Shown in pieces: positions 38,555 to 54,487 of a stretch of 64,000 nt of DNA. Every line of letters starts with the position of its first letter. Positions within the stretch are counted from its first letter, which is position 1. A program made the position numbers and the translations under genes. The DNA is from Mycobacterium sp. (GTDB lineage Bacteria; Actinomycetota; Actinomycetes; Mycobacteriales; Mycobacteriaceae): assembly GCA_040509115.1 (NCBI GenBank), contig JBEVLO010000095.1; one strand, written 5' to 3'. Under the pieces are notes generated by a model that worked only from the letters and a program-made list of their open reading frames with translations, was not told the origin of the DNA and searched no databases.

Positions 38555-38656
38555 ATGAGGATCAGCGAGAAGCGAAGCGGGATTGCGCATGAGGATCAGC
38601 GAGAAGCGAAGCGGGATCGCGCATGAGGGTCAGCGAGAAGCGAAGCGGGATCGCGC
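38555..38656 (+). repeat. Tandem repeat, 3 x 34 bp (ATGAGGATCAGCGAGAAGCGAAGCGGGATCGCGC)
   Basis: Three near-identical units (one substitution each in units 1 and 3) ending exactly at the DUF2786 start ATG. Confidence 0.95.
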
Positions 38657-39406
38657 ATGACTGACGACAAGATGCTGGCGCGGATTGCCGCGTTGCTGCG
38701 CCAGGCGGAGAACACCGATAACGTCCACGAGGCCGAGGCCTTCATGACGGCGGCCCAGCGGCTCGCCACCACGACATCCATCGATCTGGCAGTCGCGAGG
38801 GCACATTCGGCGACGAGGACCGCCGCGCAGGCGCCGGTGCAACGCACCATCACCATCGGTGAGGCCGGCACGAAGGGGTTGCGGACGTACGTGCAACTGT
38901 TCGTGGCGATCGCCATGGCCAACGACGTGAAGTGTGACGTCGCATCGAACTCCACCTTCGTGTACGCGTACGGATTCGCCGAGGACATCGACGCCGGGCA
39001 TGCGCTGTACGCCAGTCTGGTGGTGCAGATGGTCAAGGCGGCCGACGCCTACCTCGCGTCCGGTGAGCATCGTCCGACGCCCACCATCACGGCGCGCCTG
39101 AACTTCCACTTGGCCTTCGGGGCGCGCGTGGGTCAGCGACTGTCCGAGGCACGCGAGGACGCCAGGCAGGCCGCGACCTCGGGCCGTGATCAGCAGCCCG
39201 GTACTGCGGTCGCGTTGCGCAACAAGGACATCGAACTCAAGAGTTTTTACCGGGAGGCGTCCAAGGCGCGCGGCACGTGGCGGGCCACCAGCGCCTCGGC
39301 GGGGTACTCGTCGGCGGCACGGCGGGCCGGTGACCGCGCAGGGCGACGCGCCAGGCTCGGTCCCAGTGCCGAATTGGCCGGGGCGCGAAAGACATTGGGT
39401 CGTTAG
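38657..39406 (+). CDS. DUF2786 domain protein (Rv0184-like)
   Basis: 'DKMLARIAALLRQAE.T...EAEAF..AAQRLAT'; synteny after the Rv0183 ortholog. Confidence 0.88.
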   Translation: MTDDKMLARIAALLRQAENTDNVHEAEAFMTAAQRLATTTSIDLAVARAHSATRTAAQAPVQRTITIGEAGTKGLRTYVQLFVAIAMANDVKCDVASNSTFVYAYGFAEDIDAGHALYASLVVQMVKAADAYLASGEHRPTPTITARLNFHLAFGARVGQRLSEAREDARQAATSGRDQQPGTAVALRNKDIELKSFYREASKARGTWRATSASAGYSSAARRAGDRAGRRARLGPSAELAGARKTLGR

Positions 39407-39627
39407 GTCGGGGCCGCGATATCCATCGCTCGAAGGCATGTGAGGCCGAGCGCGCGCTTCGTGCGCACGCTCTTCGGGGGCGGGTGAGCACGCCAACCGC
39501 AGCCTGGAGTTCTTCGGTGGCAGGCTGGCGAACCGCTGTTCGTGCGTGCGCGTCGCGGCGTCACTGCCGCGCACCACGAGGACGACGGTCCCACCGCAGG
39601 CTGCCGGACCGGCCCACCACGTGGGCG
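39407..39627 (+). pseudogene. 5' remnant of the host Rv0185-like (TIGR04338-type) metallohydrolase
   Basis: Frameshifted fragments RDIHRSKACEAE, FVRTLF, EHANRSLEFFG, VRARRGVTAAHHEDDG, PDRPTTWA, in the order recalled for Rv0185. Confidence 0.75.
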
Positions 39628-39712
39628 CCGCGCACATGGGTGGGAGCCGTCGCCCCGGAGTAGGGCGAAAACACCCTAGGAACGGGACATTTGCGCTCGT
39701 AGGGTCGAAAGC

Positions 39713-40456
39713 ATGGCTCCAGCGATGCAGCGCACAGCCCTGGTGACCGGAGCGGCCGGGGGAGTTGGACGAGCGGTCGTCGCCGAACTTCTAGGGAACG
39801 GCTACGCAGTCATCGCCGAAGACGTCGACCCGAGCGTCGAAGAGCTGGCGCAGCCAGGTGTCGTGATCCCGTTCGTTGCGGATGTCACCCGAGAGTCCTC
39901 AGCTCGGGAAGCCGTGCAGCTGGCGCGTGAGAACTTCAGCCAGCTCGACCTTCTGGTGAACAACGCAGGCCGCTATCTCAGCCGTCCGCTGCTCGAGACC
40001 ACGGTCGCTGACTTCGACCGGCTCGTCTCGGTGAACGTCAAGGGCAGCTTCGTGCACGCTCGCGAATCGATCCTCGCGCTGCGTGAGACACGCGGCGCCA
40101 TCGTGAACGTCGCATCGATGTCAGGCCTGATCGGCATGACCGGGCAAGCGGTCTACGCGATCACGAAGGGCGCGTTGGTGCAGTTCACCCGCCAGCTGGC
40201 GATCGAGCATGCGCCGGCGGGTATCCGAGTCAACGCGGTAGCGCCCGGAGCGATCGACACCCAGTTCGTTGCGAAGTCTCGCACCGAGAACCCGGATCCC
40301 GACCCCGAGGCCACGCGCGCGGCTCAGATCGCAAACCACCCGCTTGGCCGCATCTCGACGCCCGAAGAAGTCGCGCAGGCAATCGTCTGGCTGGCCCAGG
40401 CGCAAGCAATCACCGGCGCGATCCTCTCGGTCGACGGCGGATTCACGGCTCGCTGA
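39713..40456 (+). CDS. SDR oxidoreductase
   Basis: 'TGAAGGVG', 'LVNNAG', 'YAITKGA', 'RVNAVAPG', 'SVDGG'. Confidence 0.92.
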   Translation: MAPAMQRTALVTGAAGGVGRAVVAELLGNGYAVIAEDVDPSVEELAQPGVVIPFVADVTRESSAREAVQLARENFSQLDLLVNNAGRYLSRPLLETTVADFDRLVSVNVKGSFVHARESILALRETRGAIVNVASMSGLIGMTGQAVYAITKGALVQFTRQLAIEHAPAGIRVNAVAPGAIDTQFVAKSRTENPDPDPEATRAAQIANHPLGRISTPEEVAQAIVWLAQAQAITGAILSVDGGFTAR

Positions 40457-41427
40457 TGATCGACCAAGACGCGACATCGACGACGCCGACGGCATCAACA
40501 CCGCCGCACCTCGCCGACGCCCTGCCCAGAGGTTTCAGCGATCTGATCGCCGGTGCAATCGATCTGCACGTTCACGGGCAGCCCGACCTCTCACGGGCTG
40601 TCGTCAACCGCGGCACTGACGCCGCGGTCGCGGCTCTCGCCCGGCAGTACGAAATCAACGGCTGGGTGCTCAAGTCTCACCTCTGGCCAACCATGGATCG
40701 AGCCGCCGCGCTTCAAGATCAGTTCGACCCGGAAGAATTCCGCGTCTTCGGCAGCATCACGCTCAACCCGCAGAATGGCGGCGTCTCACCGGCGGTCGTC
40801 GAACTCGCAGCGGCACATGGTGCCAAAGTGATCTTCTTCCCGACCTGGGGATCGGCTGCAGACGTCGAGCGTGGTGGGTACATCTCGACCCTGCTCGCTC
40901 GCGGATCCGCTCACTTCGACGACTACGCCAGATCCAATGCGATCAGTGTCACCGACTCGAACGGACGCTTGACGTCTGCGGCCGCCGACATCGTTCACGT
41001 CGCCGCCGCCCTCGGGCTCGTGATCGGCACCGGGCACCTGACCTTCGCCGAATCGAAGGCACTCGCCGAGGAGTGCAAGGAGAAGGACGTCCCCGTGTTC
41101 ATCAACCATCCGCTGCACTACGCCGCCGACCCGGCAGAGCTGAAACAGTTCACCGAGTGTGGCGCCTACGTGGAGTTCGCCGCGGCACCGCTGCTGCATC
41201 CCGACAGCCACCACACGATCAAGCAGGTTTTCGCGGCTATCGAAGAAGTAGGTGCGGAGCACACCGTGCTGTCGACCGATGTGTTCTCGCGCTGGGTCCC
41301 GCCGGAACCCGAGATGCTCCGAATCTTCGCCGAGCAGCTCAAATATCTCGGCGCGAGCGCCGAGGAGCTCCGTCAGATGCTCGTGCGCAATCCGCGCCGA
41401 GTCTTGGGAATCGAGGTCGCACGATGA
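40456..41427 (+). CDS. DUF6282-like amidohydrolase/TIM-barrel metalloprotein 1
   Basis: 'IDLHVH', 'LKSH', 'GTGHL', 'NHP', 'LSTD' amidohydrolase ligand pattern. Confidence 0.7.
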   Translation: MIDQDATSTTPTASTPPHLADALPRGFSDLIAGAIDLHVHGQPDLSRAVVNRGTDAAVAALARQYEINGWVLKSHLWPTMDRAAALQDQFDPEEFRVFGSITLNPQNGGVSPAVVELAAAHGAKVIFFPTWGSAADVERGGYISTLLARGSAHFDDYARSNAISVTDSNGRLTSAAADIVHVAAALGLVIGTGHLTFAESKALAEECKEKDVPVFINHPLHYAADPAELKQFTECGAYVEFAAAPLLHPDSHHTIKQVFAAIEEVGAEHTVLSTDVFSRWVPPEPEMLRIFAEQLKYLGASAEELRQMLVRNPRRVLGIEVAR

Positions 41428-41996
41428 ACCGTCGCCTTGAGCCGCGGCCACCGGAAACCCTCACGGTTGAGCAGCTCGAGTTCTACAACCTCTTCGCGAC
41501 AGGGCCCCGGGCAGCGCCCGACGTGGCCTTCTCCCTACTGGACGCCGACGGGGCGCTCACCGGTCCGCCATCGGCCTGGCTGCTCGCGCCGCCGGTTGCG
41601 AATGCGCTCGAAAGGCTCGGGGCAGCGATCCGCTTCGGCCTCACGCTCACTGCACGCGAATGCGAAGCCGCAATCCTCACTGTCGCGTATAGCGAGGCTC
41701 AGCCCTTCGAGTTGCACGCCCACCTTCCCGCAGCGCGCAAAGCTGGCTGGACAGCCGACGACCTCGAAGACATCCGCGAGGGCCGCGACCCCGAGGGGGC
41801 CAGCGCGGGGGAGAGAGCGGCGCTCGCCGTAGCCCGCCGGCTCGTCGACGCGAGAACCCTCGATGACACCGAGTACGCGATCGCCCGCGACGAGCTGGGT
41901 GAGCGCCGCCTCTTCGAGCTCGTCACCCTTGTCGGCTACTACCGAATGATGGCTCTGCAGCTCAACGTCTTCGCCATCGATCCTCCCTCCGAATAG
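41424..41996 (+). CDS. Carboxymuconolactone decarboxylase (CMD/AhpD-like) family protein
   Basis: ATGA-coupled; 'LTARECEAAIL...FELHAH', 'ELVTLVGYY'; no CXXC. Confidence 0.75.
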   Translation: MNRRLEPRPPETLTVEQLEFYNLFATGPRAAPDVAFSLLDADGALTGPPSAWLLAPPVANALERLGAAIRFGLTLTARECEAAILTVAYSEAQPFELHAHLPAARKAGWTADDLEDIREGRDPEGASAGERAALAVARRLVDARTLDDTEYAIARDELGERRLFELVTLVGYYRMMALQLNVFAIDPPSE

Positions 41997-42158
41997 CGGG
42001 GAAATACCTGAAATCGACTCGTCCAGTAGTGGTCCGACGAGAGCCCGCACATAGTTTGTGAGTGTGCTCACGGCGAGCTGCGGTCCTGTCCAGGCCCGGC
42101 AGATTGCCGCAGAATCGCTCGCCGATCCACTGTCGGATCCCCCCGAGGAAGAGACCAA

Positions 42159-43559
42159 ATGTCGCAGCCAACTTCTGCAGCGGTGTCGACGACCGACCCC
42201 GTCGTCCGTCGTCGCAGAGCCATCAGGGGAGCCTTCTGGGGCTTCCTGGTGGACTCGTTCGATATCTATCTGCCATCCGTGGCGCTGCTGCCGGCGATGA
42301 TCTACTTCACCAAGGGGCTGTCGACCGAAACGACCGCACTGGTGACCGGGCTCACCTTTGCGTCCACGCTCATCGGACGACCAGTCGGCGCCATCCTGTT
42401 CGGCCTATTCGCCGACAAGCTGGGCCGCAAGCGCGTGGGAGCCATCGCGATCTACGGATTCTCGATCGTCACACTGATCATCGGGCTCCTTCCCGGCGCG
42501 GAGCAGATCGGTGGCGGGCTCGCTATCGGCATCCTGCTCGCCCTTCGCTTCATCGACGGGATCTTCCTGGGCGGCGAGTACACGGCAGCCACTCCGATGG
42601 CGATCGAATACGCCAAGACCAACCGTCGCGGCCTCGTCGGCGGCTTCGTGCAGAGCGCGTCGACCATCGGCTACTTTGCCATCTCCTTGGTGACGTTCGT
42701 CTCGCTCACCATCTCGCCTGCAGGCGAAATCGACTCCCCATACGTCCAATGGGGTTGGCGCATACCGTTTTTCGTCGGCGCGATCTTCGCATTCGTGGTG
42801 GCCCGCTTCCTGCGCAACAACGTTGAGGAGAGCGTCATCTGGGAGAACGCCAAGAAGTCGGAGAACCCTCTTCGCGAGATGCTCAGCGGCGAGAACCGCA
42901 CGGCGTTCATCCAGGTGTTCCTGCTGATGACGGGTGTCTTCTTCATGGTCAACATGGTCGGGTCGGTGCTTCCGCAGCTGGTGCTCGCGCAAGACGGTTT
43001 CACCGGAACGACACTCACGGTCAGCCTCATCGTCGGAAACATCTTCATCCCGGCGGCGTACTGGGGTTCCGGACTGCTGAGCGACAAGGTCGGCAGACGT
43101 CCCGTGCTGATCGGCTGCGGAGCCCTGGTGGTTCTTGTCATGACGACGCTGTTCGCCGTGCTCGGCACGAATACCAACCTCGGACTGCCGTACGTGATCA
43201 CGATCGTGTTCTTCCTCAACGCGGTGAACGCCGCGACCATCGGAACCCTGCCCTCCTACATCAACGAACGCTTCCCGACCTCGGTTCGCTCGTCGGGCTG
43301 GGGCATCGGCTACAGCCTGGCCGTGATCATCCCCGGCTTCTTCGCCTTCTACCAGCTCGGTTTGGCGCAGCTCATCCCAAGCGGTCTGACGGCTGCGGTG
43401 CTGGTCGCGGTCGGCGGGCTGCTGATCATCATCACGGTGGCGCTCTCGCCAGAGACCCGCGGAACGGATCTGAACACCGCATCGATGGCAACACTGCACT
43501 CGAAGGGTGCCGCGGGAATCGCGGCCCGAGCGGCCGCGGCAAGCAAGTCGAACTCGTGA
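42159..43559 (+). CDS. MFS transporter (MHS metabolite:H+ symporter-like)
   Basis: 'GRPVGAILFG.FADKLGRK', 'GGEY', 'ERFPTSVRSSG'. Confidence 0.9.
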   Translation: MSQPTSAAVSTTDPVVRRRRAIRGAFWGFLVDSFDIYLPSVALLPAMIYFTKGLSTETTALVTGLTFASTLIGRPVGAILFGLFADKLGRKRVGAIAIYGFSIVTLIIGLLPGAEQIGGGLAIGILLALRFIDGIFLGGEYTAATPMAIEYAKTNRRGLVGGFVQSASTIGYFAISLVTFVSLTISPAGEIDSPYVQWGWRIPFFVGAIFAFVVARFLRNNVEESVIWENAKKSENPLREMLSGENRTAFIQVFLLMTGVFFMVNMVGSVLPQLVLAQDGFTGTTLTVSLIVGNIFIPAAYWGSGLLSDKVGRRPVLIGCGALVVLVMTTLFAVLGTNTNLGLPYVITIVFFLNAVNAATIGTLPSYINERFPTSVRSSGWGIGYSLAVIIPGFFAFYQLGLAQLIPSGLTAAVLVAVGGLLIIITVALSPETRGTDLNTASMATLHSKGAAGIAARAAAASKSNS

Positions 43560-44545
43560 TTCCGAGCTACCGAGAACTGGTCGCCCGCTCCGACGCTCCC
43601 TCAGGTTCGTCCTGGGGAGTGTTCGGTGAGAGCGATCAGCTCGGCACGCTGAACTTCATCACGTCGGAGGTTTCCGCGCGGGCGGCTGGTTTGGTACGCG
43701 AAGGCCGCATCATCAACCTCGACTACCCGATCAACACCTTCGTTCCGAGCATTGCCGGCACTCGTCCGCCGACCGAGCACTACGTGTTCTCCAATAACCC
43801 GAACCATCGGGACGACTGGCTGGACAAGTTCTATCTGCAGTCCACCTCCCAGATCGACGGACTCCGCCATATGCGGCATCCTGTGGCCGGCTTCTACGGA
43901 GGCGTTGCGGATGACGCCGTAGCGGTCGGATCCCCTGATCTCGGAATCGGACTCGTCGCCGAGAACGGAGTCTTCGGCCGCGGCGTGCTGATCGACCTCC
44001 CCCGGTACTACGCCAGCATCGGTACCACGTTCGACAACAGCACGAACCACATGGTGACGCCTGAGGATCTGGTCGCGGCGGCTCGGCACCAGGACGTGGC
44101 ATTCCACTCCGGTGACATCCTGCTCGTCAACACGGGGTGGGCAGCCGATTATCTCGCGCTCACCGATGACGGCCGCGCCCACCGCCGAGCCAACTGGGGA
44201 TCCCCGGGGCTGATGCAGTCGGATGCGATGCTCGAGTTTCTTTGGGACAGCCAGTTCTCGATGGTGATCTCCGACAATGCCGGTCTCGAAGCCTTCCCGG
44301 TCAATCCGGACTCCGGATTCATCGACCCCGATGAGCCGCTTCCCTGCCGTGGGCCGAGCCACAACGGCATGATGCACCGCCAGCTGATCGCTCTGCTCGG
44401 CCTCTTCATCGGCGAGCTCTGGAAGCTCGACGAGCTCGTCGAAGCCTGTGCCGCAGACGGCCGCTACGAATTCCTGCTCACTGCCAAACCCCTGAACGTC
44501 ATCGGTGGGGTCGGCTCCCCGCCGAACGCGATGGCAATCAAATGA
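43556..44545 (+). CDS. Cyclase-family (kynurenine formamidase-like) hydrolase
   Basis: 'WGVFGESDQLGTLN', 'QSTSQIDGLRH', 'GRGVLID', 'GELW.LDEL', 'GGVGSPPNA'. Confidence 0.85.
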   Translation: MIPSYRELVARSDAPSGSSWGVFGESDQLGTLNFITSEVSARAAGLVREGRIINLDYPINTFVPSIAGTRPPTEHYVFSNNPNHRDDWLDKFYLQSTSQIDGLRHMRHPVAGFYGGVADDAVAVGSPDLGIGLVAENGVFGRGVLIDLPRYYASIGTTFDNSTNHMVTPEDLVAAARHQDVAFHSGDILLVNTGWAADYLALTDDGRAHRRANWGSPGLMQSDAMLEFLWDSQFSMVISDNAGLEAFPVNPDSGFIDPDEPLPCRGPSHNGMMHRQLIALLGLFIGELWKLDELVEACAADGRYEFLLTAKPLNVIGGVGSPPNAMAIK

Positions 44546-44591
44546 CGGCGACGCGCATGCCCCCCCAAAGCCATTCGAGAGGAACCACCAG

Positions 44592-45476
44592 ATGAGTGCC
44601 GTAGACGACTTGCTCGTTGGGGCGATCGACCTCCACACCCATTCCGGCCCTTCGCCGATGCCGCGGCGCATCACACACGCCGAAGCTGCGAAGCAGGCGG
44701 CAGAGGCCGGCTTCCGCGCCATCGTCGTGAAGTGTCACTATCACGACACCGTCAACGACGTCCTGGCGATCGCGCCGCTGCTGGAAGACGTCAAGACCCA
44801 GGTCTTCGGCGGAGTCGCACTCAACAGTCCGGTGGGCGGACTCAACCCGCACGCTGCCGACCTGTCACTGAAGATGGGCGGCAAGATCGTCTGGTTCCCG
44901 ACGATCTCGTCCACCATCCATCTGGACCACTCGTCGCACCACCCCGAAACCCAATGCCACTTCCAGCCTCTGGGCATCAGGCAGGCCGAGGAGGTGTCGG
45001 TATTCGGAGACGACGGCGAGCTCCGGCCCGAGGTCGAGGAGATCGTCGGCCTTGCCAAGCAGGCGGGCGCGCTCATCTCCACCGGGCACTTGGACACGAA
45101 GTCCGCCGCAGCCGTCGTGGGTGCCGCGCAGAGGATCGGGCATCGCCAGATCGTCGTCAGTCATCCGAACTACGTGTCCGACATCGATCGCCAGCATGCG
45201 CAGGCAATGGTTGCCGCAGGGGCAGTCATCGAGCACGAGATCGCCATGTACGACAACGACAAGATCTTCCCGGTGCAGACCTTGATCGACTGGATTTCGG
45301 CGATCGGCGCCGAGAACACGATCATCGGATCCGACCTCGGCCAGGTCGGGAATCAGCTCCCGATCGACGGGTACCGAAGCTTGCTCGGGCGCCTCCTCGA
45401 CCTCGGCGTCACCGAGCGCGAGATCTCACTGATGATCCGCGAGAATCCAGCCCGCCTCATCGGGCTCGACTCGTGA
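44592..45476 (+). CDS. DUF6282-like amidohydrolase/TIM-barrel metalloprotein 2
   Basis: 'AIDLHTHSGPS..PR', 'KCH', 'STGHL', 'SHP', 'GSDLGQ'; start ATG 44592. Confidence 0.75.
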   Translation: MSAVDDLLVGAIDLHTHSGPSPMPRRITHAEAAKQAAEAGFRAIVVKCHYHDTVNDVLAIAPLLEDVKTQVFGGVALNSPVGGLNPHAADLSLKMGGKIVWFPTISSTIHLDHSSHHPETQCHFQPLGIRQAEEVSVFGDDGELRPEVEEIVGLAKQAGALISTGHLDTKSAAAVVGAAQRIGHRQIVVSHPNYVSDIDRQHAQAMVAAGAVIEHEIAMYDNDKIFPVQTLIDWISAIGAENTIIGSDLGQVGNQLPIDGYRSLLGRLLDLGVTEREISLMIRENPARLIGLDS

Positions 45477-46258
45477 GGGGTTTCGCGCGCGCACTCCGGG
45501 AGGCTGACCGCACTCTGATCGGAACGTGGGTGAAGATTCCGTCGCTCGAGACGGTCGAGATCCTGGCGCTGTCCGGATTCGATTACGTGGTCATCGACCA
45601 GGAGCATGCGCCGCTGTCGTTCGACTTCGTCTACTCGGCAACCGTGGTCGCGCAGGGGGCCGGAATGAACGTGCTGGTGCGCGTGCCCGACCGCAGCGGC
45701 AGCCACCTCCAGCGGCTTCTCGATGCGGGGGTCGACGGAATCCTTGTTCCTCGGGTCACGACTGCCGCCGAGGCCGCTCAATCGGTAGCGCAGATGACCT
45801 TCTCTCCGGCCGGTGAGCGCGGGATGGGCATCACGGCTCGGGCAGGGCAGTGGGGTGGCCTCTCGCGGGATGCCTACCTTGCCTCCGGGGATGACGTGTT
45901 GCGTGCTGTTCAGCTCGAGGATCGCGGGTCGCTCGAGGCGATCGCCGAGATCGTCGCGGTGCCGCATCTCAACGGGCTTTTCCTCGGCATGGGCGATCTG
46001 CAGCAGTCGAGCGGACTGGACGAGAAGGACCCGCAGATCCAGCGACTCGTCGCCAGCTTCCTCGAGCAGGCGCAGGCACACCGGATCCCGACGGGAACGG
46101 CGGTGCAGACCGCAGAACAGGCTGCCGCAGCTGCTGCCCGTGGGTTCTCGTTCGTCATGGTCAGCAATGACACCGGGCTGCTGCGCGCCGCGGCAGCCGG
46201 GCTCGTGGCCGAGACGCGCAGCCAGGTCGCCGAGCGCACCCAGCCGCAGCCCGCGTAG
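45473..46258 (+). CDS. HpcH/HpaI class II aldolase family protein
   Basis: GTGA-coupled; 'FDYVVIDQEH', 'LLDAGVDGILVP', 'QLED', 'FLGMGDL'. Confidence 0.9.
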   Translation: MRGFARALREADRTLIGTWVKIPSLETVEILALSGFDYVVIDQEHAPLSFDFVYSATVVAQGAGMNVLVRVPDRSGSHLQRLLDAGVDGILVPRVTTAAEAAQSVAQMTFSPAGERGMGITARAGQWGGLSRDAYLASGDDVLRAVQLEDRGSLEAIAEIVAVPHLNGLFLGMGDLQQSSGLDEKDPQIQRLVASFLEQAQAHRIPTGTAVQTAEQAAAAAARGFSFVMVSNDTGLLRAAAAGLVAETRSQVAERTQPQPA

Positions 46259-46306
46259 TCCGGCTCTCCTCGCGAACCTCCCTCAACGAACCGAAAGGAT
46301 TCTCCC

Positions 46307-47248
46307 GTGCCCTACGAAAAGGACGATGTCCGAGCCAAATTGGCGAGCTCCGGGCCCACCGGGCCAACTGCCACCGCGTTCTCCGGGATGGAGTATGCCA
46401 AGTTCTACGAGACCGAGCCGCAGGAGACCGGCGACGGCTTCTCCACCTGGTACGCGCGTGGCCAGAACTTCGTGCTCAGCTACACCGATCTCGCGGGTGA
46501 GGTGAGTTTCGAGCGAATCGCGGAGCCAGAAGAGCATGTCGTCCTGCTACCCGACACCGCCACCCGCGCAGTCGTGACTGCCGGGGAAGAGACGGTTGAC
46601 GCCTCGGGCAAGCGCCTGATGATCGTTCCGCCCGGTGACAGCACAGTGACGGTCACCGGCACCGGTCGCGTGGTTCGCCTGGTGCGTTCGACCGCTGCGG
46701 ATCTGGTGGCGCTCGCCGCCAACTCAGACTCATACGAGACCGCTCACGAGAACATCCCCGCGTTCGAACGCTGGCCGAATCCGCCGGAGGGCTTCAAGAT
46801 CCGGTCGTACGACCTGAACGTCCCGACCCTGGCGGGATCGAACTTTCGGCTCTTCCGCTGCACCACGTTCATGGTCAACTTCATCGAGCCGGCCGACGGT
46901 CCGCGTGACCTGCACAAGCTTTCGCCCCACTTCCACGACGACTTCGAGCAGTGCTCCCTCGTGCTGAATGGCGCATACGTTCATCACGTCCGCTGGCCCT
47001 GGACCACCGATCGCAGCGTCTGGCGTGACGACCAGCACGAGTTCTGCGGCGCCCCATCCGTCGCGGTCATCCCGCCCCCCAGCGTGCACACGAGCGAGGC
47101 AGTCGGCACCGAGATCAACCATCTGGTCGATATCTTCAGCCCGCCCCGACTCGATTTTTCGAACATGGATGGCTGGGTGCTGAACGCTGCCGACTACCCG
47201 ATGCCCGTGCCGGTCGCCGAACCCGTCGCTGGGGCAGCTGCTGTATGA
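46307..47248 (+). CDS. Uncharacterised two-domain cupin-like protein
   Basis: 'SPHFHDDFEQ' and 'IPPPSVH' cupin-like metal motifs; GAAAGGA RBS. Confidence 0.55.
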   Translation: MPYEKDDVRAKLASSGPTGPTATAFSGMEYAKFYETEPQETGDGFSTWYARGQNFVLSYTDLAGEVSFERIAEPEEHVVLLPDTATRAVVTAGEETVDASGKRLMIVPPGDSTVTVTGTGRVVRLVRSTAADLVALAANSDSYETAHENIPAFERWPNPPEGFKIRSYDLNVPTLAGSNFRLFRCTTFMVNFIEPADGPRDLHKLSPHFHDDFEQCSLVLNGAYVHHVRWPWTTDRSVWRDDQHEFCGAPSVAVIPPPSVHTSEAVGTEINHLVDIFSPPRLDFSNMDGWVLNAADYPMPVPVAEPVAGAAAV

Positions 47249-48711
47249 GCGGCCGTTCCAAGAGACCGTTCCGGGTTGCGATCATCGGATCCGGATTCGG
47301 CGGCATCGCCACCGCCGTGAAGCTGAAGAAGGGCACGTCCGCTTCGTTCGTGATCTTCGAGCAAGCCGCCGGGGTGGGGGGCACATGGTTCGAGAACCGT
47401 TATCCGGGTTGCGAAGTCGACATTCCGTCGCACGCCTACTCGTTCTCGTTCCTCAAATACGACTGGGCGCGCACGCACGCGACTCAGCCCGAGCTGTTGA
47501 AGTACGCCGAACACGTAGTGGACACGTTCGAGCTGCGTCCGCACGTGCGACTGAACACCCGGGTCACGAAGGCCGAATGGGACGACGGCCGCCAGGTCTA
47601 TGACGTCTATACGGATCTCGGTGAGAAGCACGAGTTCGACGCCGTCGTCTCGGCGGTCGGTCTGCTGAGCGTGCCGCGCTTCCCCGACTGGCCAGGACTC
47701 GACGAGTTCTCGGGTGTCTCGTTCCACACGTCGCGCTGGGAGCCTGACCACGATCTGACGGGCAAGACCGTGGCGATCGTCGGCACGGGATCCACTGCGG
47801 CCCAGGTCGTTCCGGCCCTCGCCCCGAATGTCGGCAAGCTGCTCGTGTATCAGCGTGAGCCTGGCTGGGTGGAGCCGAAGACCGAGCGCGCGTTCACCCC
47901 GCGTGAGCGTGCGTTCTACAAGCACGTCCCGTTTGCGCAGCGGATCCACCGCCTGTACCTGTTTGCGCAGGGCATCCGGCGGTTCAAAGCGAACGACGCC
48001 ACCAGCAAGAAGCAGAAGCAGATGCGCGCGATGTGCGAGGCGTACATCAAGTCGGCGATCAAGGATCCGGCGATCCAAGAGGCCGTGACGCCCGACTATC
48101 CGTGGGGCTGCAAGCGGCCGGTGATCGCGTCGACGTATTACCCGACGTTCAACCGGTCGAACGTGGAGCTGGTTCCGCACGCTGTTGTTCGCGCGACACC
48201 GGGCGGGTTGGTGGATGCGACCGGGACCGAGCGCGACATCGACGTGCTAGTGATGAGCACGGGATTCCAGCCTACGAGATTCTTGGCGAACATCGAGATC
48301 GTCGGCCGCAAAGGCACGCGGCTGCACGATGTTTGGGCGCATCGCGCATCCGCGTTCCTGGGTGTGACAGTGCCGAATTTCCCGAACTTCTTCGTGCTGT
48401 ACGGGCCGAACACCAACGGTGGGATGTCGATCATCGCCCAGCTGGAGCGACAGGCCGAGATCGCGGTCAGCTCGATTGCGCGGCTGCAGAAGGACGGCCT
48501 GCGCGCGGTGGACACCGACGCTTCGGCCGCTCGCGGCTACGTGCGATGGATCGACAAGCAGCTCGCGACGCACGCGTCAGCGATGAACTCGGGGTGCAAC
48601 AACTACTTCCACACGGCCAGTGGCGACAACGTGACGCAGTGGCCGCGCACCCACTTCGTCTACTTCGTGCTGACGCGCATCCTGCGGCGTCGCGGCCTGC
48701 GCTTCTCCTGA
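47245..48711 (+). CDS. Flavin monooxygenase, type I Baeyer-Villiger type
   Basis: 'GSGFGG', 'GGTWFENRYPGC', fingerprint FxGxxxHxxxW ('FSGVSFHTSRW'), 'GTGSTA', 'STGF'. Confidence 0.9.
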   Translation: MSGRSKRPFRVAIIGSGFGGIATAVKLKKGTSASFVIFEQAAGVGGTWFENRYPGCEVDIPSHAYSFSFLKYDWARTHATQPELLKYAEHVVDTFELRPHVRLNTRVTKAEWDDGRQVYDVYTDLGEKHEFDAVVSAVGLLSVPRFPDWPGLDEFSGVSFHTSRWEPDHDLTGKTVAIVGTGSTAAQVVPALAPNVGKLLVYQREPGWVEPKTERAFTPRERAFYKHVPFAQRIHRLYLFAQGIRRFKANDATSKKQKQMRAMCEAYIKSAIKDPAIQEAVTPDYPWGCKRPVIASTYYPTFNRSNVELVPHAVVRATPGGLVDATGTERDIDVLVMSTGFQPTRFLANIEIVGRKGTRLHDVWAHRASAFLGVTVPNFPNFFVLYGPNTNGGMSIIAQLERQAEIAVSSIARLQKDGLRAVDTDASAARGYVRWIDKQLATHASAMNSGCNNYFHTASGDNVTQWPRTHFVYFVLTRILRRRGLRFS

Positions 48712-48764
48712 GGTCGCCGGCAGTCACGCTGGTGGAGTCGCTGCCCGACCCTCGATCGGCGTGC

Positions 48765-49562
48765 TTACGCCAACCGCACCGCAACCTCCCCAGCCGCACC
48801 CTCCGCCGCCGGAAACCTCAGCCGAGTCCGGCCATCATGCCCCGGAATCACAACCGCTCCCGTCTTGGCCGCGAGCGCGCGGATCAACGCGAATCCCGCC
48901 TTCATCTCCTCGAGATCGGTAAAGGCGAAGAACGGCCAGTCCAGCTCGAACTGCTCGTAGAAGTGCGCGGCATCGGACGCGAGCAGAAAGGGTCCCGCCG
49001 CCGAGTCCACCACGGTCAACAGCTCGCCCGGGGAGTGCCCGCTCACGGGATGGACGGTCACGCCCCGGTGCACCTCGGTCGGTTCCTGCACCAGAACCAG
49101 CCGTCCTTCTGCCTCGGCCACCTTGATCGCGGCAAGGTGATGTTCAGACGCCAGGCTGCCCTCGAGTTGTCCCGCATCCCATAGTCCGAACCAGTATTCG
49201 CGCTCGGCGCTCCCCGCGACGATGGTCGCATCGGGGAACAGTCCGACATAGCCGATGTGGTCGTAGTGGAAATGCGAGGTGATGACCATGCTGACGTCGG
49301 CTGGGTCGATGCCAAGCAGCTTCAGGCCTTCCGGTGGCGACATCACGTGGACTTCGTCGTGCGTGTTGCGCTCGTGCAGCGGGTAGCCAGTGTCGAAGAG
49401 GATCACGTCGCTGCCGGAGCGGATCACCCAAAAGCTGTAATCCATCTCGAGGTCGTCGTCCGGTAACCCGTACTGCGCGTAGTCATGGAACGCGTAGCTC
49501 TTCTTCAGTACCCGCTTCGCGTAGCGCACCTGCCAGAGGTGAATGGCAGGATGCTCAGCCAC
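48765..49562 (-). CDS. N-acyl homoserine lactonase-like metallo-beta-lactamase-fold hydrolase
   Basis: HXHXDH 'SHFHYDH', 'FDTG', 'GHSPG', 'ASDAAH', 'PGHD'; start GTG 49562. Confidence 0.85.
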   Translation of the reverse strand: MAEHPAIHLWQVRYAKRVLKKSYAFHDYAQYGLPDDDLEMDYSFWVIRSGSDVILFDTGYPLHERNTHDEVHVMSPPEGLKLLGIDPADVSMVITSHFHYDHIGYVGLFPDATIVAGSAEREYWFGLWDAGQLEGSLASEHHLAAIKVAEAEGRLVLVQEPTEVHRGVTVHPVSGHSPGELLTVVDSAAGPFLLASDAAHFYEQFELDWPFFAFTDLEEMKAGFALIRALAAKTGAVVIPGHDGRTRLRFPAAEGAAGEVAVRLA

Positions 49563-50529
49563 GGCCTGCGCTGCTGGACTCGACGACGTACTCGGAGTCA
49601 GCTTCCAGTTGCCTCCAGAGGAACTCGGCGATTTCGGTGCGGCACTCCTTCGCCTCATCCATTTCGGGATCGCTGAGGAACGCGTGCCACATTCCCTCCC
49701 AAACGAGCAGCTCGGTTCGTGCACCGCTTCGACGGAGCTTCCAGTAGAGGCGCACGCAGTTGCTGAGGAAGAGGTCACTAGTCCCGCAAGTGATGATGCT
49801 CGGCGGGAAGCTCGCGTCATAGTCTGCGTAGATCGGCGAGACCAGCGGGTCGTCGTATGGGGCGACCCCTGCGTAGGCTGCGGCCGCCTCATCGAGTTGG
49901 CCGTTCCAGCGGATGATCGGGTCGCGGCCCTCGTTGCTCTCGTAGGTGTCGCCGATCGGGGCGAGATCCGACCATGGCGTGACGAGTGCGAGTGCGTGGG
50001 GTAGCGGTGCGCCGGTCGCCTGGAGACGTTGGACCAGGCTGAGCGCGAGGGACCCGCCGGCCGAAACTCCAACGACGACCACCTCGGGTCCGAATCGCTC
50101 GACGATCGCTAGGTAGGCATCGACGCACTCGCCGATCGCCTGGGGAAAGACGGCTTCCGGGCTCAACGAATAGTCGATCGAGTGCACCGGCAGGCCGAGC
50201 GCATCCGCGAGCAGAACGCCAGTGGCGTCGGCGGGTGCGCCGAGAATGTATGCGCCGCCGTGGATGTAGATGACGTGCCGATCACCAGCATCGGGTCTGA
50301 GCGACTTCGGATTGAGGATCACGACTCTCGCCAGGGACTCCGTGACCGAATCCGCGGTCGGGGCGGCGACCAGGAGCTCCCGCGTCAGTCTGTCGATCAG
50401 CGTCGCCGAATCTGCGACACGGGCGGCGCGGACGGCGTGAGCGGCCGCGAGAGTTATCGGGGCGGCTTTGGCGTAGGGGAGCTGGGCGGAGTCCGGTGCC
50501 ATCAGGTCAGCTAACTGCGCCGCGTCCAC
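49555..50529 (-). CDS. HSL-family alpha/beta hydrolase (esterase/lactone hydrolase-like)
   Basis: 'IHGGAY', 'DYSLSPE..FP', 'GVSAGG', 'EGMWH'. Confidence 0.88.
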   Translation of the reverse strand: MDAAQLADLMAPDSAQLPYAKAAPITLAAAHAVRAARVADSATLIDRLTRELLVAAPTADSVTESLARVVILNPKSLRPDAGDRHVIYIHGGAYILGAPADATGVLLADALGLPVHSIDYSLSPEAVFPQAIGECVDAYLAIVERFGPEVVVVGVSAGGSLALSLVQRLQATGAPLPHALALVTPWSDLAPIGDTYESNEGRDPIIRWNGQLDEAAAAYAGVAPYDDPLVSPIYADYDASFPPSIITCGTSDLFLSNCVRLYWKLRRSGARTELLVWEGMWHAFLSDPEMDEAKECRTEIAEFLWRQLEADSEYVVESSSAGRG

Positions 50530-50536
50530 CCGTTTC

Positions 50537-50554
50537 TAGCGTGGAACCACGCTA
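50537..50554. promoter_or_regulatory. 18-bp palindrome TAGCGTGG-AA-CCACGCTA
   Basis: Perfect 8-bp arms, 7 bp upstream of the esterase start in the divergent spacer. Confidence 0.55.
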
Positions 50555-50685
50555 TTCAGCGCCTCCGCAACCCGCTTCTGCCTGCTCCCGATATTGTCGG
50601 ACGAAGGTACAATTGCGCGGCGAGCAGTCGAGGTTCGGTCGCTTGCCGAAGGCCGAAGGCCTTCAGAAGACCTTCATGGAGCTCA

Positions 50686-52941
50686 ATGTCGAGTGACACG
50701 TTTTCTCTTCGCGACCTGATCGCGGCTGAGCGTACGAGTTTCATCGGGCGCAAAGCTGAGACGGTCGCTGCGCGCAAAGCGCTGGTCGACGCACGCCTCC
50801 TCACGCTCACCGGCGCTGCCGGAGCGGGCAAGAGTCGCCTTGCCCGAAAGACGATCTCCGACATCCAGAAGACCGGCAGCGTTCGGGTATTCGCGCTGGA
50901 TTTCGCTGAGCTCGCGCCCGAAGAGGTAGCCGATCGCACGCTGGCCGCCGCGTGGATCGCTGCGGTTCGAGACAGCGGCAACGCTGTCGTGCTGGTCGAC
51001 AACGCCGACTCGCATGCCGACTCGCACGCCGACGATGCCCGCATCATCATCGACGGGATTCTCGATGGAGCCCCGGAGGCGCGGGTGATCGCGACCTGTC
51101 GCCATGCGCTCGCGATCGCCGGTGAAGCGTTGCTCGAGGTCGCCCCCTTCACTGTTGATTCCGATGTCGCCGCTCACGAATCTCCTGCCGAAGCGGACTG
51201 CGTCAAGCTCTTCGCAGATCGCGCGCGATTAGCCGTTCCGACCTTCGCGCTCTCGGACGGCAATGCCGGCCAAGTTCTCGAGATCTGCGCTCAACTGGAT
51301 GGGCTTCCGGCAGCGATCGAGGTTGCAGCCTCTGCGCTTCGGATCATTCCGCTGGACCGCATCCGTGCCGCCCTGATCGGTGCCGACCCGATCGTCGACT
51401 TCGTGCCTGCGGCTCGCGCGCTCGCTGAATCCGTCGATGCAGAGTTCGCGCGTCGAACCCCGGCGGAGCGGCACCTGCTCGCTGTCGCTGCCGGTATGGC
51501 CGACAACTTCGCGATGGAGTGCCTGACGGATCTTCGGTTCATCGACCTTGGGCTCGCCGAGCGCACCGAGGCGTTCTTCGGATTGGTCGATCATTCGCTG
51601 TTCCTGCGCGCACCGAATGATGAAGGCAGGTTCCGCATCCTGCGCTCGGTGCGTCGTCGCGGGCTCGAGGAGTTGGCGGCGACAGATGCAGTCGGCGCCT
51701 TCGGGGCCGGGCTTGAGAAGCATCTCGTCGACCTGCTCACCAACGCCGCAGAGAAGTGGACCGGTCCACAGCAGCAAGCGGTCATCCGCCATTTGCGCTG
51801 GCACCGGCGCGACATTTCCAAGCTGCTCGAGACGTTGGCTGCCAGCTCGGACCGTTCAGGCGACGCAATCACGTTGATTGCTGGGCTCCGTCGGTACTGG
51901 CTCGTCGCGGGTCAGGTCGATCAGGCTCAGAAGTGGCTCGAGACCGCGATCGAGAACCATCCGATCCGTGACGTGCTGGTGGCGAGGGCACTGTGGGTGC
52001 GCGCCTACCTCGTGATCATGTCGGCCGATCAGACGCTGGCATCCGCACTGCTGCTCGAGAGCGTCTCCCTCAGTGAGCATTTGGATGAGCCGTCCGAACT
52101 ATTCTCGGCAAAGTTCATCCAGGCGATGATCGGGGTGAGTCGCTTCGAGATCGATGCCGCTGAGCAGGATCTGCTTTCCGTCGTCGAGCACACGAAACAG
52201 CAGGGGAGTGCGTCGGATCTCGGCGAGCAGTATTACTTCCTGGTGCTGATCAGCCTGCTGCGTGGCGACCACATTCAGGCCGAACTGCTGTTCCAGGAGA
52301 GCATTCAGAGTCTTCGGGTGCTGGGGGACACGTGGGGCATGGCGAATGCGATGCTGGTGCTGGCGATTTCGCTGCTGCACCGCGGGCAGGAGCAGCGCGC
52401 CGCAGAGCTGGCGAAGGACTGTCTCGCCGTCCTCGACGGCCTTGGCGATGAGACCGGTCTCCCGACGTGCCTGAAGCTGCTGGCAACGGTGGCATTCCGG
52501 CAGGGGGATGCGGTGAAGGCGGCGACCCTGCTGGCTGCGGCGCAGCAGCTGAGTTCGACTCGCACCATGGTCCGAAACGCGATCAGCGCGGAGACCGATT
52601 TGGGTCTTCGGAAGGTACTCGGTAATCGCGAGTACTACCGGATCACCGCCAAGGGGCGGCGGCTGGGGCACTCAGAGCTGATGGCGCTGGCCATGGGAGA
52701 GAGCGGTAGTGCGGGTGAAGTTGCCCTCACGCGCCGGGAACTTGAGATCGCGCAGAAGCTCGTCGAGGGTATGAGCAACTCGCAGATTGCTGCCGCGCTC
52801 GTCGTTTCGCCGCGAACCGTCGAGGGGCACATCCAGCGCATCTTGTCGAAGCTGCAGTTCCGTTCCCGTTCGCAGATCGCCGTCTGGATGGCGAAGCACC
52901 ACGAGAAGAACCGTCCGCGTCCCCTCCGCGCGATCGTCTAA
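50686..52941 (+). CDS. Large ATP-binding LuxR-family regulator (P-loop/NB-ARC-like plus helical repeats plus HTH)
   Basis: Walker A 'GAAGAGKS', 'LDGLPAAIE', C-terminal 'LTRRELEIA...GMSNSQIA..L.VSPRTVEGH'; TACAAT -10 box at 50608. Confidence 0.88.
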   Translation: MSSDTFSLRDLIAAERTSFIGRKAETVAARKALVDARLLTLTGAAGAGKSRLARKTISDIQKTGSVRVFALDFAELAPEEVADRTLAAAWIAAVRDSGNAVVLVDNADSHADSHADDARIIIDGILDGAPEARVIATCRHALAIAGEALLEVAPFTVDSDVAAHESPAEADCVKLFADRARLAVPTFALSDGNAGQVLEICAQLDGLPAAIEVAASALRIIPLDRIRAALIGADPIVDFVPAARALAESVDAEFARRTPAERHLLAVAAGMADNFAMECLTDLRFIDLGLAERTEAFFGLVDHSLFLRAPNDEGRFRILRSVRRRGLEELAATDAVGAFGAGLEKHLVDLLTNAAEKWTGPQQQAVIRHLRWHRRDISKLLETLAASSDRSGDAITLIAGLRRYWLVAGQVDQAQKWLETAIENHPIRDVLVARALWVRAYLVIMSADQTLASALLLESVSLSEHLDEPSELFSAKFIQAMIGVSRFEIDAAEQDLLSVVEHTKQQGSASDLGEQYYFLVLISLLRGDHIQAELLFQESIQSLRVLGDTWGMANAMLVLAISLLHRGQEQRAAELAKDCLAVLDGLGDETGLPTCLKLLATVAFRQGDAVKAATLLAAAQQLSSTRTMVRNAISAETDLGLRKVLGNREYYRITAKGRRLGHSELMALAMGESGSAGEVALTRRELEIAQKLVEGMSNSQIAAALVVSPRTVEGHIQRILSKLQFRSRSQIAVWMAKHHEKNRPRPLRAIV

Positions 52942-53039
52942 CCCACCCGGGATTGGCTGTGTCAGTTCCGGTCGCCGAACGCGCTGGACCCTCCATGTGG
53001 ATGACGGCTGGGTCTGAGATCCAACGCCGTGCTTCCTCT

Positions 53040-53531
53040 CTACCCGCTGCGACGAAGTCCCGACGAGTAGTACCCGCCGCGAAGAAGGAGTGCCGCCGGT
53101 TCTCCCAACACGACGCTGACCAAGAAGATCATCGCGCGTCGGAACTCCACTCCGTGCCATCGTGTTCCGCTCGACGTAGAGGGAAGCCCCTCGCTCACTG
53201 ACAGGTGGTGAGCCAACTCGTGCAACACGGTGCTCTCGCGACCAAAGGCCCTGTCCTTCATGGGAATCGCCACTGTCGCGGTCGAAGGCTCGTAGTGCGC
53301 CTTGCTCTGCCCACGGCGTTCTCGTACGTAGACCGGACCGGCGTTCGGGTACTTCTCGCGAATGGAGTCCGATGCCAGGACCCCGTCGACGTACCTCTGT
53401 ACGGATGGTATGTCGGCGAATCGCTTCTGCATCGGAACGTCCATGAGTGAACCGTGGAAGTCCACGAGTCCGCCCCTGTCGAGGATTGCAGACCACTGGT
53501 GTTCTGCCCCGTAGACTGCTGATGCGCTCAC
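53040..53531 (-). CDS. Island-borne TIGR04338-type HEXXH metallohydrolase (Rv0185 xenolog)
   Basis: 'AVYGAE', 'RFADIPSVQRYVD', 'VRERRGQSKAHY', 'VLHELAHH', 'WHGVEF'; start GTG 53531 (alternative ATG 53579). Confidence 0.8.
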   Translation of the reverse strand: MSASAVYGAEHQWSAILDRGGLVDFHGSLMDVPMQKRFADIPSVQRYVDGVLASDSIREKYPNAGPVYVRERRGQSKAHYEPSTATVAIPMKDRAFGRESTVLHELAHHLSVSEGLPSTSSGTRWHGVEFRRAMIFLVSVVLGEPAALLLRGGYYSSGLRRSG

Positions 53532-53654
53532 TTCCGACGCCCGAGCTGCCGTTGGACGGCCTTGTCGGCGTCGTGCCATCCGATGAGCCAATTCAAAGCG
53601 AAGCGGTCCATAGCTCCCCGTTGGAGGTGCACCGCTCGAACTTAACACCCCGTA

Positions 53655-53800
53655 TGTCCACAGAAGTGGGTGCTCCATCTGGCCGTGCCGAGCCGCCGCA
53701 CGGCAGCGAGTTCGTCACCTGTTTCGGCGATCTGGCTGGCGCCGTCATGGGTTTGGAGGCCGCGCCCGTGCTGCGCGTGGTCTATGCGAGGGTGCGCTAG
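53655..53800 (+). pseudogene. 3' remnant of the host Rv0185-like metallohydrolase
   Basis: Frameshifted HEV...HL, then AEPPHGSEFVTCFGDLAGAVMGLEAAPVLRVVYARVR*, matching the recalled Rv0185 C-terminus. Confidence 0.75.
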
Positions 53801-53824
53801 GCCGACGCGGCTAACGTGGTACGG

Positions 53825-54487
53825 GTGACTGATCCTGATCCGCGGGCCCTCGACGCCAAGTTCGACGAGCTGTTGAATACCGAGGACGACGTTCTCCTGG
53901 CGACCAGGGCTGCCGCCGACGCTGCGGGCATGCCCCAGATCGAGGTATCCGCCCAGCACGCCAAGTTGCTCTCCCTGCTGGCGACGATCACCCGGGCGAC
54001 GCGCGTACTCGAGATCGGCACACTGGCCGGATACAGCACCATCTGCCTGGCCCGCGGCGTGGCCCCCAACGGGCACGTGACGACGCTCGAATACGAACCC
54101 AGGCACGCCGAGGTGGCCAGGAAGAACCTCGCGGCGGCCGGAGTCGACGCCCGAGTCGACGTCATCGTCGGCGCGGCCCTGGACACCCTGCCCAAACTGG
54201 CCGAGCGCGGCGAGCGCTTCGACCTGTTCTTCATCGACGCCGACAAGGAGAACAACGTCGCGTACGTGCAGTGGGCGATCGACCTGGCGACGCCCGGCGC
54301 GTTGATCGTGGTCGACAACGTCGCCCGGTCCGGACGCGTGCTGGACCCGGCACCCGACGATCGGCAGGCCCGCGCCGTCCACGACATGTTCGTGATGATG
54401 GGCGACCACCCCCGGTTGGACACCGCGGCGATTCAGACAGTCGGCAGAAAGGGCTGGGACGGGTTCGCGGTCGCGCGGGTGACGTGA
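53825..54487 (+). CDS. O-methyltransferase (Rv0187-like, COMT family)
   Basis: 'VLEIGTLAGYST', 'FFIDADKEN', 'VVDNV'; TAACGT -10 box 7 nt before GTG 53825. Confidence 0.92.
   Translation: MTDPDPRALDAKFDELLNTEDDVLLATRAAADAAGMPQIEVSAQHAKLLSLLATITRATRVLEIGTLAGYSTICLARGVAPNGHVTTLEYEPRHAEVARKNLAAAGVDARVDVIVGAALDTLPKLAERGERFDLFFIDADKENNVAYVQWAIDLATPGALIVVDNVARSGRVLDPAPDDRQARAVHDMFVMMGDHPRLDTAAIQTVGRKGWDGFAVARVT

Follow-up and report, generated by a model that had tools for sequence, protein, structure and literature searches.

A 14-kb island splitting a mycobacterial TIGR04338 gene is probably the immobilized remnant of a tyrosine-recombinase element that carries a replacement for its target

The window analysed here, a stretch of 64,000 nucleotides from Mycobacterium sp. 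(NCBI GenBank assembly GCA_040509115.1, contig JBEVLO010000095.1), contains a host gene of the TIGR04338 family (Rv0185-type, here termed clade 1) that is interrupted at 39647/53673 by ~14.0 kb of DNA of lower GC content (0.62–0.67 inside the island, at ~39.7–53.6 kb, versus 0.68–0.70 outside). Near its right end the island encodes a second, divergent member of the same family (clade 2). Two questions arise: how did an island without an intact integrase come to lie within this gene, and why does it bring along a relative of the gene that it splits? Our answer, given with good confidence, is that a mobile element with site-specific integration was stranded here and that the island is what is left of it. 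The comparisons below provide a reconstructed history for what was an unexplained pseudogene and an island lacking an integrase.

The flanks of the island are the two halves of one host gene. At this locus, which we take to correspond to Rv0184–Rv0185 ... Rv0187 of M. tuberculosis, every relative inspected has the order DUF2786, TIGR04338, O-methyltransferase with nothing between; the DUF2786 gene, the conserved neighbour of TIGR04338, is syntenic in all of them, and the relatives closest at the locus share just 80–84% DNA identity with the window. All of the 24 sampled same-genus relatives have exactly one TIGR04338 gene (210–238 bits). An initial annotation, made from the sequence alone, had described the left flank as the N-terminal part of an Rv0185-type protein in shifted frames, and alignment of the flanks to genus orthologs had been set beforehand as the check on this description; both tblastn and nhmmer confirmed it. 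With proteins of relatives as queries, tblastn placed ortholog residues ~4–30 at 39379–39462, 36–51 at 39480–39527 and 81–116 at 39515–39625 on the left, and residues 129–171 at 53663–53791 on the right. A DNA profile built for nhmmer from 28 genus orthologs matched the left flank with nodes 3–182 at 39347–39526 (E 1.7e-23) and nodes 274–396 at 39518–39633 (E 1.8e-12), and the right flank with nodes 426–619 at 53675–53859 (E 2.4e-19). Against the NCBIfam model the right flank covers TIGR04338 positions 124–158 (E 4.9e-7), and the match of the left flank is weak. The host fragments at 39407–39647 and 53673–53800 are thus colinear with genus orthologs and are pseudogene halves rather than a functional family member.

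Both halves are decayed. The 5′ half is spread over three frames, and profile nodes 183–273 are absent between its two alignments, so that a deletion of ~91 nt, which the initial annotation had missed, must have occurred within it. Between the two halves just 29 profile positions (ELVVLHExAH) are missing from the alignments, and here the initial annotation had found about six residues unaccounted for. Read by eye, CATGGGTGGGAG is a decayed form of GAGCTGGTGGTG, the 5′ half ends at the insertion point (ELVV) at ~39647, and therefore no host sequence was lost at insertion. The 3′ half restarts at ~53673 (CT/CCATCTG...) and, compared with M. stellerae and Mycobacterium sp. NPDC006124, has lost ~15–16 nt (L-H-E-x-A-H) and acquired a 1-nt frameshift downstream. 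The C-terminus PPHGSEF...RVVYARVR* reported for the right flank is genuine host sequence, whereas the 'broken HEV..H' motif reported with it is not: CACAGAAGTG at 53661 was rejected as a remnant of the HEXXH motif, since the same sequence forms the element terminus in five other genomes.

The island copy is intact, as had been noted initially. From a GTG start it scores 119.9 bits against NCBIfam TIGR04338 (curated cut-off 90 bits) over positions 6–160 of 161 with its HEXXH motif preserved, and its protein identity to genus orthologs is just 34–39%. The 212-aa open reading frame at 53040–53678 owes its longer N-terminus to an artefact, the translation of recombinase debris and of the element terminus; the GTG at 53531 is the true start and aligns with the ATG of 161–163-aa homologues. 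Public annotation of NPDC006124 likewise lengthens the clade-2 gene upstream (226 aa, P0003). Homologues of the clade-2 protein (~162 aa, at most 94% identical) are scattered over Mycobacterium, Mycolicibacterium, Mycobacteroides, Gordonia and Williamsia. Three of their contexts place the gene close to this same O-methyltransferase, and one of the three, in NPDC006124, reproduces the layout of the window exactly.

In a phylogeny, clade 2 (support 99/99) is separate from clade 1 (97/95) and ignores taxonomy, the window copy grouping with that of M. chelonae and the Gordonia and Williamsia copies nesting inside. The 53040–53531 protein therefore falls outside the host lineage, which bears on the idea that the host gene was locally inverted or duplicated, or that the whole cluster is ancestral and was lost by relatives. 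The one thing in favour of such a history is that two family members lie at one locus; it is scarcely credible, given that clade 2 stands apart and includes Mycobacteroides, Gordonia and Williamsia copies, that the gene is uninterrupted beside the O-methyltransferase in all 24 sampled and all closest relatives, where the cluster is evidently not ancestral, and that the island is lower in GC.

A scan of species-representative genomes for clade 2 returned 12 loci, and in seven of these the clade-2 gene (c2) is the fifth and last gene of an operon, gA (520 aa)–gB (582 aa)–gC (721 aa)–gD (167 aa)–c2 (161 aa), in which stop and start codons overlap, the start of c2 overlapping the stop codon of gD. 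The operon is complete in L038, L047, L048, L049, L050 and L052 and partial in L043, and gA-gB-gC-gD-c2 was also found in genomes G214, G325, G241 and G358 (11 other genomes in all). Islands at this locus thus recurrently carry a TIGR04338 gene, in 11/11 intact elements, as the initial annotation had proposed to examine. M. chelonae and NPDC006124 retain only gC and/or gD stubs. In the annotated loci a clade-1 3′ remnant adjoins the O-methyltransferase and always begins at profile node 403–407, and the 5′ half can be read intact and in frame as far as node 410 in Mycobacterium sp. RTGN6, M. bacteremicum and M. stellerae; the halves are ~105 kb apart in RTGN6. An intact element would accordingly consist of gA-gB-gC-gD-c2 at one end, then variable cargo and then a conserved distal end of ~90 nt. 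RTGN6 also has ~1.3 kb of extra DNA (L048, 2557–3855) between the O-methyltransferase and the 3′ half, which are adjacent in other species; a further, small insertion may have occurred there.

The junctions of 11 genomes, examined nucleotide by nucleotide in host-gene orientation, define the target precisely. The attB site is ...GAGCTGGTGGTG|CTGCACGAG... (E L V V | L H E), cut two to three codons before HEXXH; every element cuts the clade-1 gene at this one position, with GTGGTG on one side and CTGCACGAG on the other, so that the initial placing of the insertion just before the HEXXH motif holds for all junctions. At the distal junction (four genomes) host GTGGTG (GTCGTC in M. bacteremicum) directly abuts TTCTTTGGACACTTC..., and the ~90 nt of the distal end are conserved across three species. 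The gA-proximal junction reads ...CTCGAACATAACACCnCGTATGTCCACAGAA, then six variable bases, then CTGCACGAR. The hexamers are TCAATG (twice), GCCCTG, ACCCTG, GTGGCG, ACGTTC, GTCGCT, ACCGGT, ACGGCG and ATCGTG, with GTGGGT(G) in the window; the 11 proximal junctions (ten and the window) therefore share terminus and host restart and have ten different hexamers in all. In some elements, though not the majority, the hexamer (GTGGCG, GTGGGT) is similar to the host flank on the other side; it is presumably of donor-site origin. The element ends are imperfect inverted repeats, TTCTTTGGACAC and ATGTCCACAGAA, complementary at 10/12 positions, and host sequence at the insertion is neither duplicated nor lost. 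When the split genes of M. stellerae, M. bacteremicum and RTGN6 are rejoined they fall into three clade-1 sublineages, beside uninterrupted relatives, which points to independent insertions.

One of two explanations offered initially was that similarity between the island TIGR04338 gene and the host gene directed recombination, after which the host copy decayed. The two genes do belong to one family and have similar codons around HEXXH (GTG YTG CAC GAG). Protein identity is as low as given above, however, the genes are oppositely oriented and c2 lies ~6 kb from the junction in intact elements; these facts, together with the precise junctions, conserved inverted-repeat termini and dedicated tyrosine recombinase (gA, below), led us to reject homology-guided integration as highly improbable in favour of site-specific insertion.

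The window keeps recognizable traces of this machinery. The conserved terminus CGTATGTCCACAGAA has a single exact match in the window, at 53651–53665, and includes the inverted-repeat arm ATGTCCACAGAA at 53654–53665. Between this terminus and the clade-2 start lie two scraps of the gA gene, at 53573–53602 and 53539–53572, which correspond to residues ~425–434 and 455–467 (FALNWLIGWH...AVQRQLGRR). Scraps and terminus together imply that a recombination module was once present and has since been deleted; deletions have taken gA residues ~1–424, as well as gA from residue ~467 onward through gB, gC and gD. The absence of an intact integrase from the island is thus due to secondary deletion. The initial statement that no integrase is visible is correct for intact genes, but it overlooked these scraps. 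No gA or gC homologue was found elsewhere in the genome itself (96% complete). A search for repeats at both window junctions gave just short, chance-level repeats, and a scan for promoters and terminators around the right junction was uninformative. For a stranded element to be recognized, a terminus of 15 nt and 60 nt of recombinase remains are evidently enough.

The identity of gA required a deep alignment. As a single sequence gA gave only sub-threshold matches, to XerC/D core-binding domains, and a PDB sequence search with a shallow gA alignment gave no match; with the deep alignment the search succeeded. Among 1.8 billion cluster representatives 469 gA relatives were found, and an alignment of 81 sequences displays the boxes TGLRxxE ... 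AKG ... PHxLRHSFAL ... LLGHxSxxTTxxYL. The family profile matches XerD (1a0p) with E 3.3e-19 in four colinear segments that include all boxes, PF00589 is detected in 71/81 members and PF02899 in 55/81, and R251, K282, R422, H466 and Y476 are invariant or nearly so. On these sequence grounds we regard gA as proven to be a tyrosine recombinase. The gC protein is probably a long tyrosine recombinase: R357, E360, K399, R501/502, H524 and Y538, plus four cysteines, are invariant across its homologues, some of which are named 'integrase' by PGAP. These homologues (23–27% identical, 611–721 aa) are carried by Rhodococcus, Streptomyces, Mycolicibacterium and Sphingobium plasmids in the layout integrase, a protein of ~550–600 aa, one of ~610–720 aa, one of ~120–170 aa and then cargo (type I restriction-modification, arsenic resistance, others). 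Homologues of gB keep R, K, R, R, Y and four cysteines. Comparison of gA with gB and gC by hhalign, with shallow and deep profiles, gave no significant match, and neither the module nor c2 nor DUF2786 gave a defence-system match in PADLOC. The 216-kb MOBF plasmid pJCM12603 of Mycolicibacterium poriferae (L074) carries a module organized in this way, in which an IS21 element separates the integrase gene from the next one; its cargo is a type I restriction-modification system. These elements, which are not conjugative themselves, may travel from cell to cell on plasmids.

If the island is a transposed element, what is its TIGR04338 gene for? In all five element-bearing genomes searched whole (G000, G417–G420) clade 2 is the only intact TIGR04338 gene; the other matches are just the two halves of the split gene, and there is no intact clade-1 copy. 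The ratio of non-synonymous to synonymous substitution rates (dN/dS) is 0.06–0.28 in clade 2 overall and 0.09–0.28 for the window copy against other clade-2 copies; among copies without a module (window, NPDC006124, M. chelonae and metagenome-assembled genomes) it is 0.12–0.19. The clade-2 gene is under purifying selection, then, and stays so even where the recombination genes have decayed. The DUF2786 gene of element-bearing genomes is also strongly constrained (dN/dS 0.06, versus NPDC006124). TIGR04338 adjoins DUF2786 in other Mycobacteriales families too: in loci from three of them (L069, L070, L071) the two genes are always adjacent, their order being reversed in 2/3, which points to the pair as a two-gene functional unit.

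The presence of the gene also follows the target. Among 300 genus genomes sampled for gC homologues, close homologues were found in five (~2%) and distant ones in 24 (~8%), and clade 2 directly follows gD in 11/11 close modules versus 0/24 distant modules; no TIGR04338 gene was found in the distant modules of L083–L107 (24 genomes), and in one distant module outside the 300-genome sample an unrelated 544-aa gene, not clade 2, comes next. Carrying TIGR04338 thus goes with targeting TIGR04338. The distant gB-gC-gD modules (gC 23–31% identical) are present in two to three copies in some genomes, e.g. G081 and G358.

We hypothesize that a tyrosine-recombinase element inserts at ELVV|LHE of the host TIGR04338 gene, splitting it, that the divergent clade-2 copy would thereby become the only intact TIGR04338 gene of the cell, and that it would probably assume the host function alongside the still-constrained DUF2786 neighbour. 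In the genome studied here, later deletions would have cost the element its distal terminus, the whole of gB, gC and gD, and gA but for the two scraps, and with the host halves decayed the cargo and the replacement gene would have been left stranded. That the island is the immobilized remnant of such an element, with its replacement TIGR04338 gene, seems to us likely. The data show directly the architecture, the recurrent site, the nature of gA as a recombinase, the remnants in the window and the purifying selection on c2, whereas both the mechanism of transposition and the complementation of the host function by clade 2 are what we infer from comparison of sequences; the suggestion, made initially, that the island complements the gene it destroyed is favoured by the sole intact copy, the purifying selection, the constrained DUF2786 partner and the 11/11 versus 0/24 association.

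Clade 2 might instead belong to the machinery or regulation of the element, its link with the target reflecting function or origin rather than replacement. It could, for instance, be an IrrE/ImmA-like or SprT-like protease that controls excision, processes recombinase–DNA complexes, or disables or mimics a host DUF2786/TIGR04338 system. Its place is suggestive in this respect, as c2 overlaps the gD stop and lies inside the recombination operon in 11/11 intact elements; TIGR04338 is, moreover, invariably accompanied by DUF2786, and that domain is one that mobile elements often carry. The AlphaFold2 (AF2) model (pLDDT 90.3) is a small zincin fold, best matched by uncharacterized phage proteins (E 7e-5, TM 0.6) and then by SprT-like and IrrE-like proteins, and its PDB matches, to minigluzincin, IrrE and Wss1, are all weak. 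Yet c2 is intact and constrained to the degree noted above where gA to gD are lost, which is unexpected for a purely transposition-related gene, distant gA to gD modules work without it, and it is a full-length family member with the HEXXH core of the host gene. We therefore consider a machinery role unlikely and retain replacement as the preferred reading.

Some observations weigh against the reconstruction as a whole. The distal terminus is absent at the left junction even though the host half there apparently extends right up to the att boundary, and a search for it across the window returned one chance-level match only, at 57088; the left end of the element is consequently reconstructed less securely. 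The gC protein has as its sole sequence match the integrase N-domain 3nrw, which is weak (E 0.008), and gB, even with diverse homologues included, matched nothing in PDB or Pfam and has no detectable recombinase homology. Mobility is deduced from comparative genomics only. The heavy decay of both host halves, together with loss of the module, indicates an old event, and the history of NPDC006124 is relevant here: it has the same architecture and a DUF2786 protein 90% identical, yet different cargo and deletions. Its synonymous divergence (dS) from the window, 0.65 for clade 2 and 0.89–1.01 for the flanks, is near saturation and cannot decide between independent insertion and receipt of an already-inserted locus by recombination; on balance the comparison leans, not decisively, towards insertions acquired separately. 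In Williamsia sterculiae (L051) a clade-2-type gene lies 55 nt from DUF2786, convergent with it, and neither module nor cargo nor a detectable clade-1 remnant was found at the locus; decay of the kind described here may have gone to its extreme in this genome, or the arrangement may be native.

Several known systems resemble the element. Actinobacterial Tn554-related transposons have an abnormally long recombinase (611–828 aa), a shorter recombinase and a TnpC-like gene and occur on Mycobacterium, Rhodococcus and Streptomyces replicons, with Novosphingobium also listed (Van Houdt et al., 2012; PMC3414803). By that description the present element may be alike, with a probable long recombinase (gC and its homologues), a shorter recombinase and a small gene that may correspond to the TnpC-like one; it shares a single preferred target, the lack of target duplication, a 6-bp variable sequence at one junction and imperfect terminal inverted repeats, and gC homologues occur on the same kinds of replicon, including sphingomonad plasmids. 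It differs from Tn554 in having four core genes versus two or three, with gB between the recombinases, cargo of up to ~105 kb, a protein-coding active-site motif as target and a paralogue of that target on board. SEs, reported only from Gammaproteobacteria, have the core intA-tfp-intB-srap and a 6-bp footprint (PMC10214605), and the cargo of one SE, Tn6283, has been suggested to compensate for its insertion in bcp. By layout the element is SE-like, with an ordinary recombinase, a large protein without a clear RHRY motif, a probable large recombinase and a small protein in that order; target specificity, the 6-bp footprint and the absence of conjugation genes are also shared, but its footprint is at the recombinase-proximal junction. 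GInts have the operon ginABCD, cargo starting after ginD and 10–17-nt imperfect direct repeats, and are not reported from Actinobacteria (PMC5385486). The four-gene operon at one end, cargo from the stop of the fourth, small gene, large and variable cargo, a far end that is short, rather rich in AT and little conserved, and integration at a specific site within a gene are all GInt-like in layout; flanking direct repeats of 10–17 nt were not found, however, there being just the 6-nt variable sequence, and GinA and GinB are clear recombinases with GinC degenerate, whereas here gB is the unrecognizable one.

The closest parallel in strategy is the recA mobile element (RME) of Vibrio cholerae, which has a phage integrase and XerS and for which complementation was shown experimentally (PMC4405046). 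Like the RME, the element is a site-specific island in a conserved host gene that it inactivates, with a complete divergent homologue and short terminal inverted repeats; its recombination genes are unrelated and its target is different, and complementation is here suggested by sequence. A literature search on TIGR04338 or Rv0185 as an integration target found no paper; the single match for 'Rv0185' was Rv0185A, a metallothionein, and was discarded as irrelevant. With junctions that behave as in Tn554 and SEs and a four-gene plan like that of SEs and GInts, the element appears to represent an undescribed mycobacterial family of Tn554/SE/GInt-like elements with a 'disrupt and replace' strategy. 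It would extend the Tn554/SE/GInt world into Actinobacteria, with a defined attB, ends and a footprint-type junction, and, with the Vibrio recA island as the first clear example, would be the second in nature in which a conserved gene is inactivated by an element that brings its own divergent copy, a copy that here outlives the element. Rv0184/Rv0185-type genes are conserved hypotheticals across mycobacteria, and such replacements indicate a function kept under selection and offer a handle for its study in laboratory strains.

It is tempting to speculate that the element destroys the host DUF2786/TIGR04338 protease deliberately and installs its own variant, which would work with host DUF2786 on the element's terms. 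We think this rather doubtful. Were it true, the host system may act on mobile DNA or DNA–protein adducts, and the variant could tolerate or process covalent recombinase–DNA intermediates, or addict the host by gene replacement; a hit on the codons of the catalytic motif would ensure both a universally conserved attB and full inactivation of the host enzyme.

The features of the locus are collected in Table 1.

Table 1. Host gene halves, island genes and element remnants in the window
Feature	Position	Strand	Part	Evidence or remark
DUF2786/DUF7168 host gene (Rv0184-type), intact	38657–39406	+	Left flank	Pfam PF10979 E 1e-11, PF23771 E 3e-9
5′ half of host clade-1 TIGR04338 gene, decayed	39407–39647	+	Left flank	tblastn, nhmmer; last 14 nt (39634–39647) by eye against attB
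65-nt spacer	39648–39712		Island	gA-distal terminus TTCTTTGGACAC... not recognizable
SDR	39713–40456		Cargo	Pfam/NCBIfam
DUF6282 amidohydrolase (first)	40456–41427		Cargo	Pfam/NCBIfam
CMD-family protein	41424–41996		Cargo	Pfam/NCBIfam
MFS transporter	42159–43559		Cargo	Pfam/NCBIfam
Cyclase	43556–44545		Cargo	Pfam/NCBIfam
DUF6282 amidohydrolase (second)	44505–45476		Cargo	Pfam/NCBIfam
HpcH aldolase	45473–46258		Cargo	Pfam/NCBIfam
Gene without assigned family	46307–47248		Cargo	
Flavin monooxygenase	47245–48711		Cargo	Pfam/NCBIfam
MBL-fold lactonase-like gene	~48765–49730	-	Cargo	Pfam/NCBIfam
Abhydrolase_3 esterase	49555–50529	-	Cargo	Pfam/NCBIfam
LuxR-STAND regulator	50686–52941		Cargo	Pfam/NCBIfam
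Clade-2 TIGR04338 metallopeptidase, intact, 163 aa, HELAHH	53040–53531	-	Island	TIGR04338 119.9 bits; AF2
Two gA tyrosine-recombinase gene scraps	53539–53602	-	Island	tblastn E 2.9e-6; blastn 85–90% identity to L038, L048, L050
gA-proximal element terminus	53634–53665		Island	94% identical to M. stellerae; same terminus in 10 other genomes
Variable junction hexamer/heptamer GTGGGT(G), footprint-like or putative coupling sequence	53666–53672		Junction	9 different hexamers among 10 other junctions
3′ half of host clade-1 gene, decayed	53673–53800	+	Right flank	nhmmer nodes 426–619; TIGR04338 positions 124–158; junction comparison
O-methyltransferase (Rv0187-type), intact	53816–54487	+	Right flank	NCBIfam methyltransferase matches; syntenic in relatives

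The 13-kb cargo (39713–52941) is a putative catabolic cluster. It was not found in other copies of the element, in which the cargo is wholly different from copy to copy. Just upstream of its first gene lies a 12-nt inverted repeat, ACCCTAGGAACG / CGCTCGTAGGGT, at 39673–39705, which may serve as an operator or may be left over from the end of the element. Outside the island, a 27-nt direct repeat, CGAGAAGCGAAGCGGGATCGCGCATGA, is present at 38600–38626 and 38634–38660, its second copy holding the ATG of the DUF2786 gene, and relatives show related duplicated matches around this repeat.

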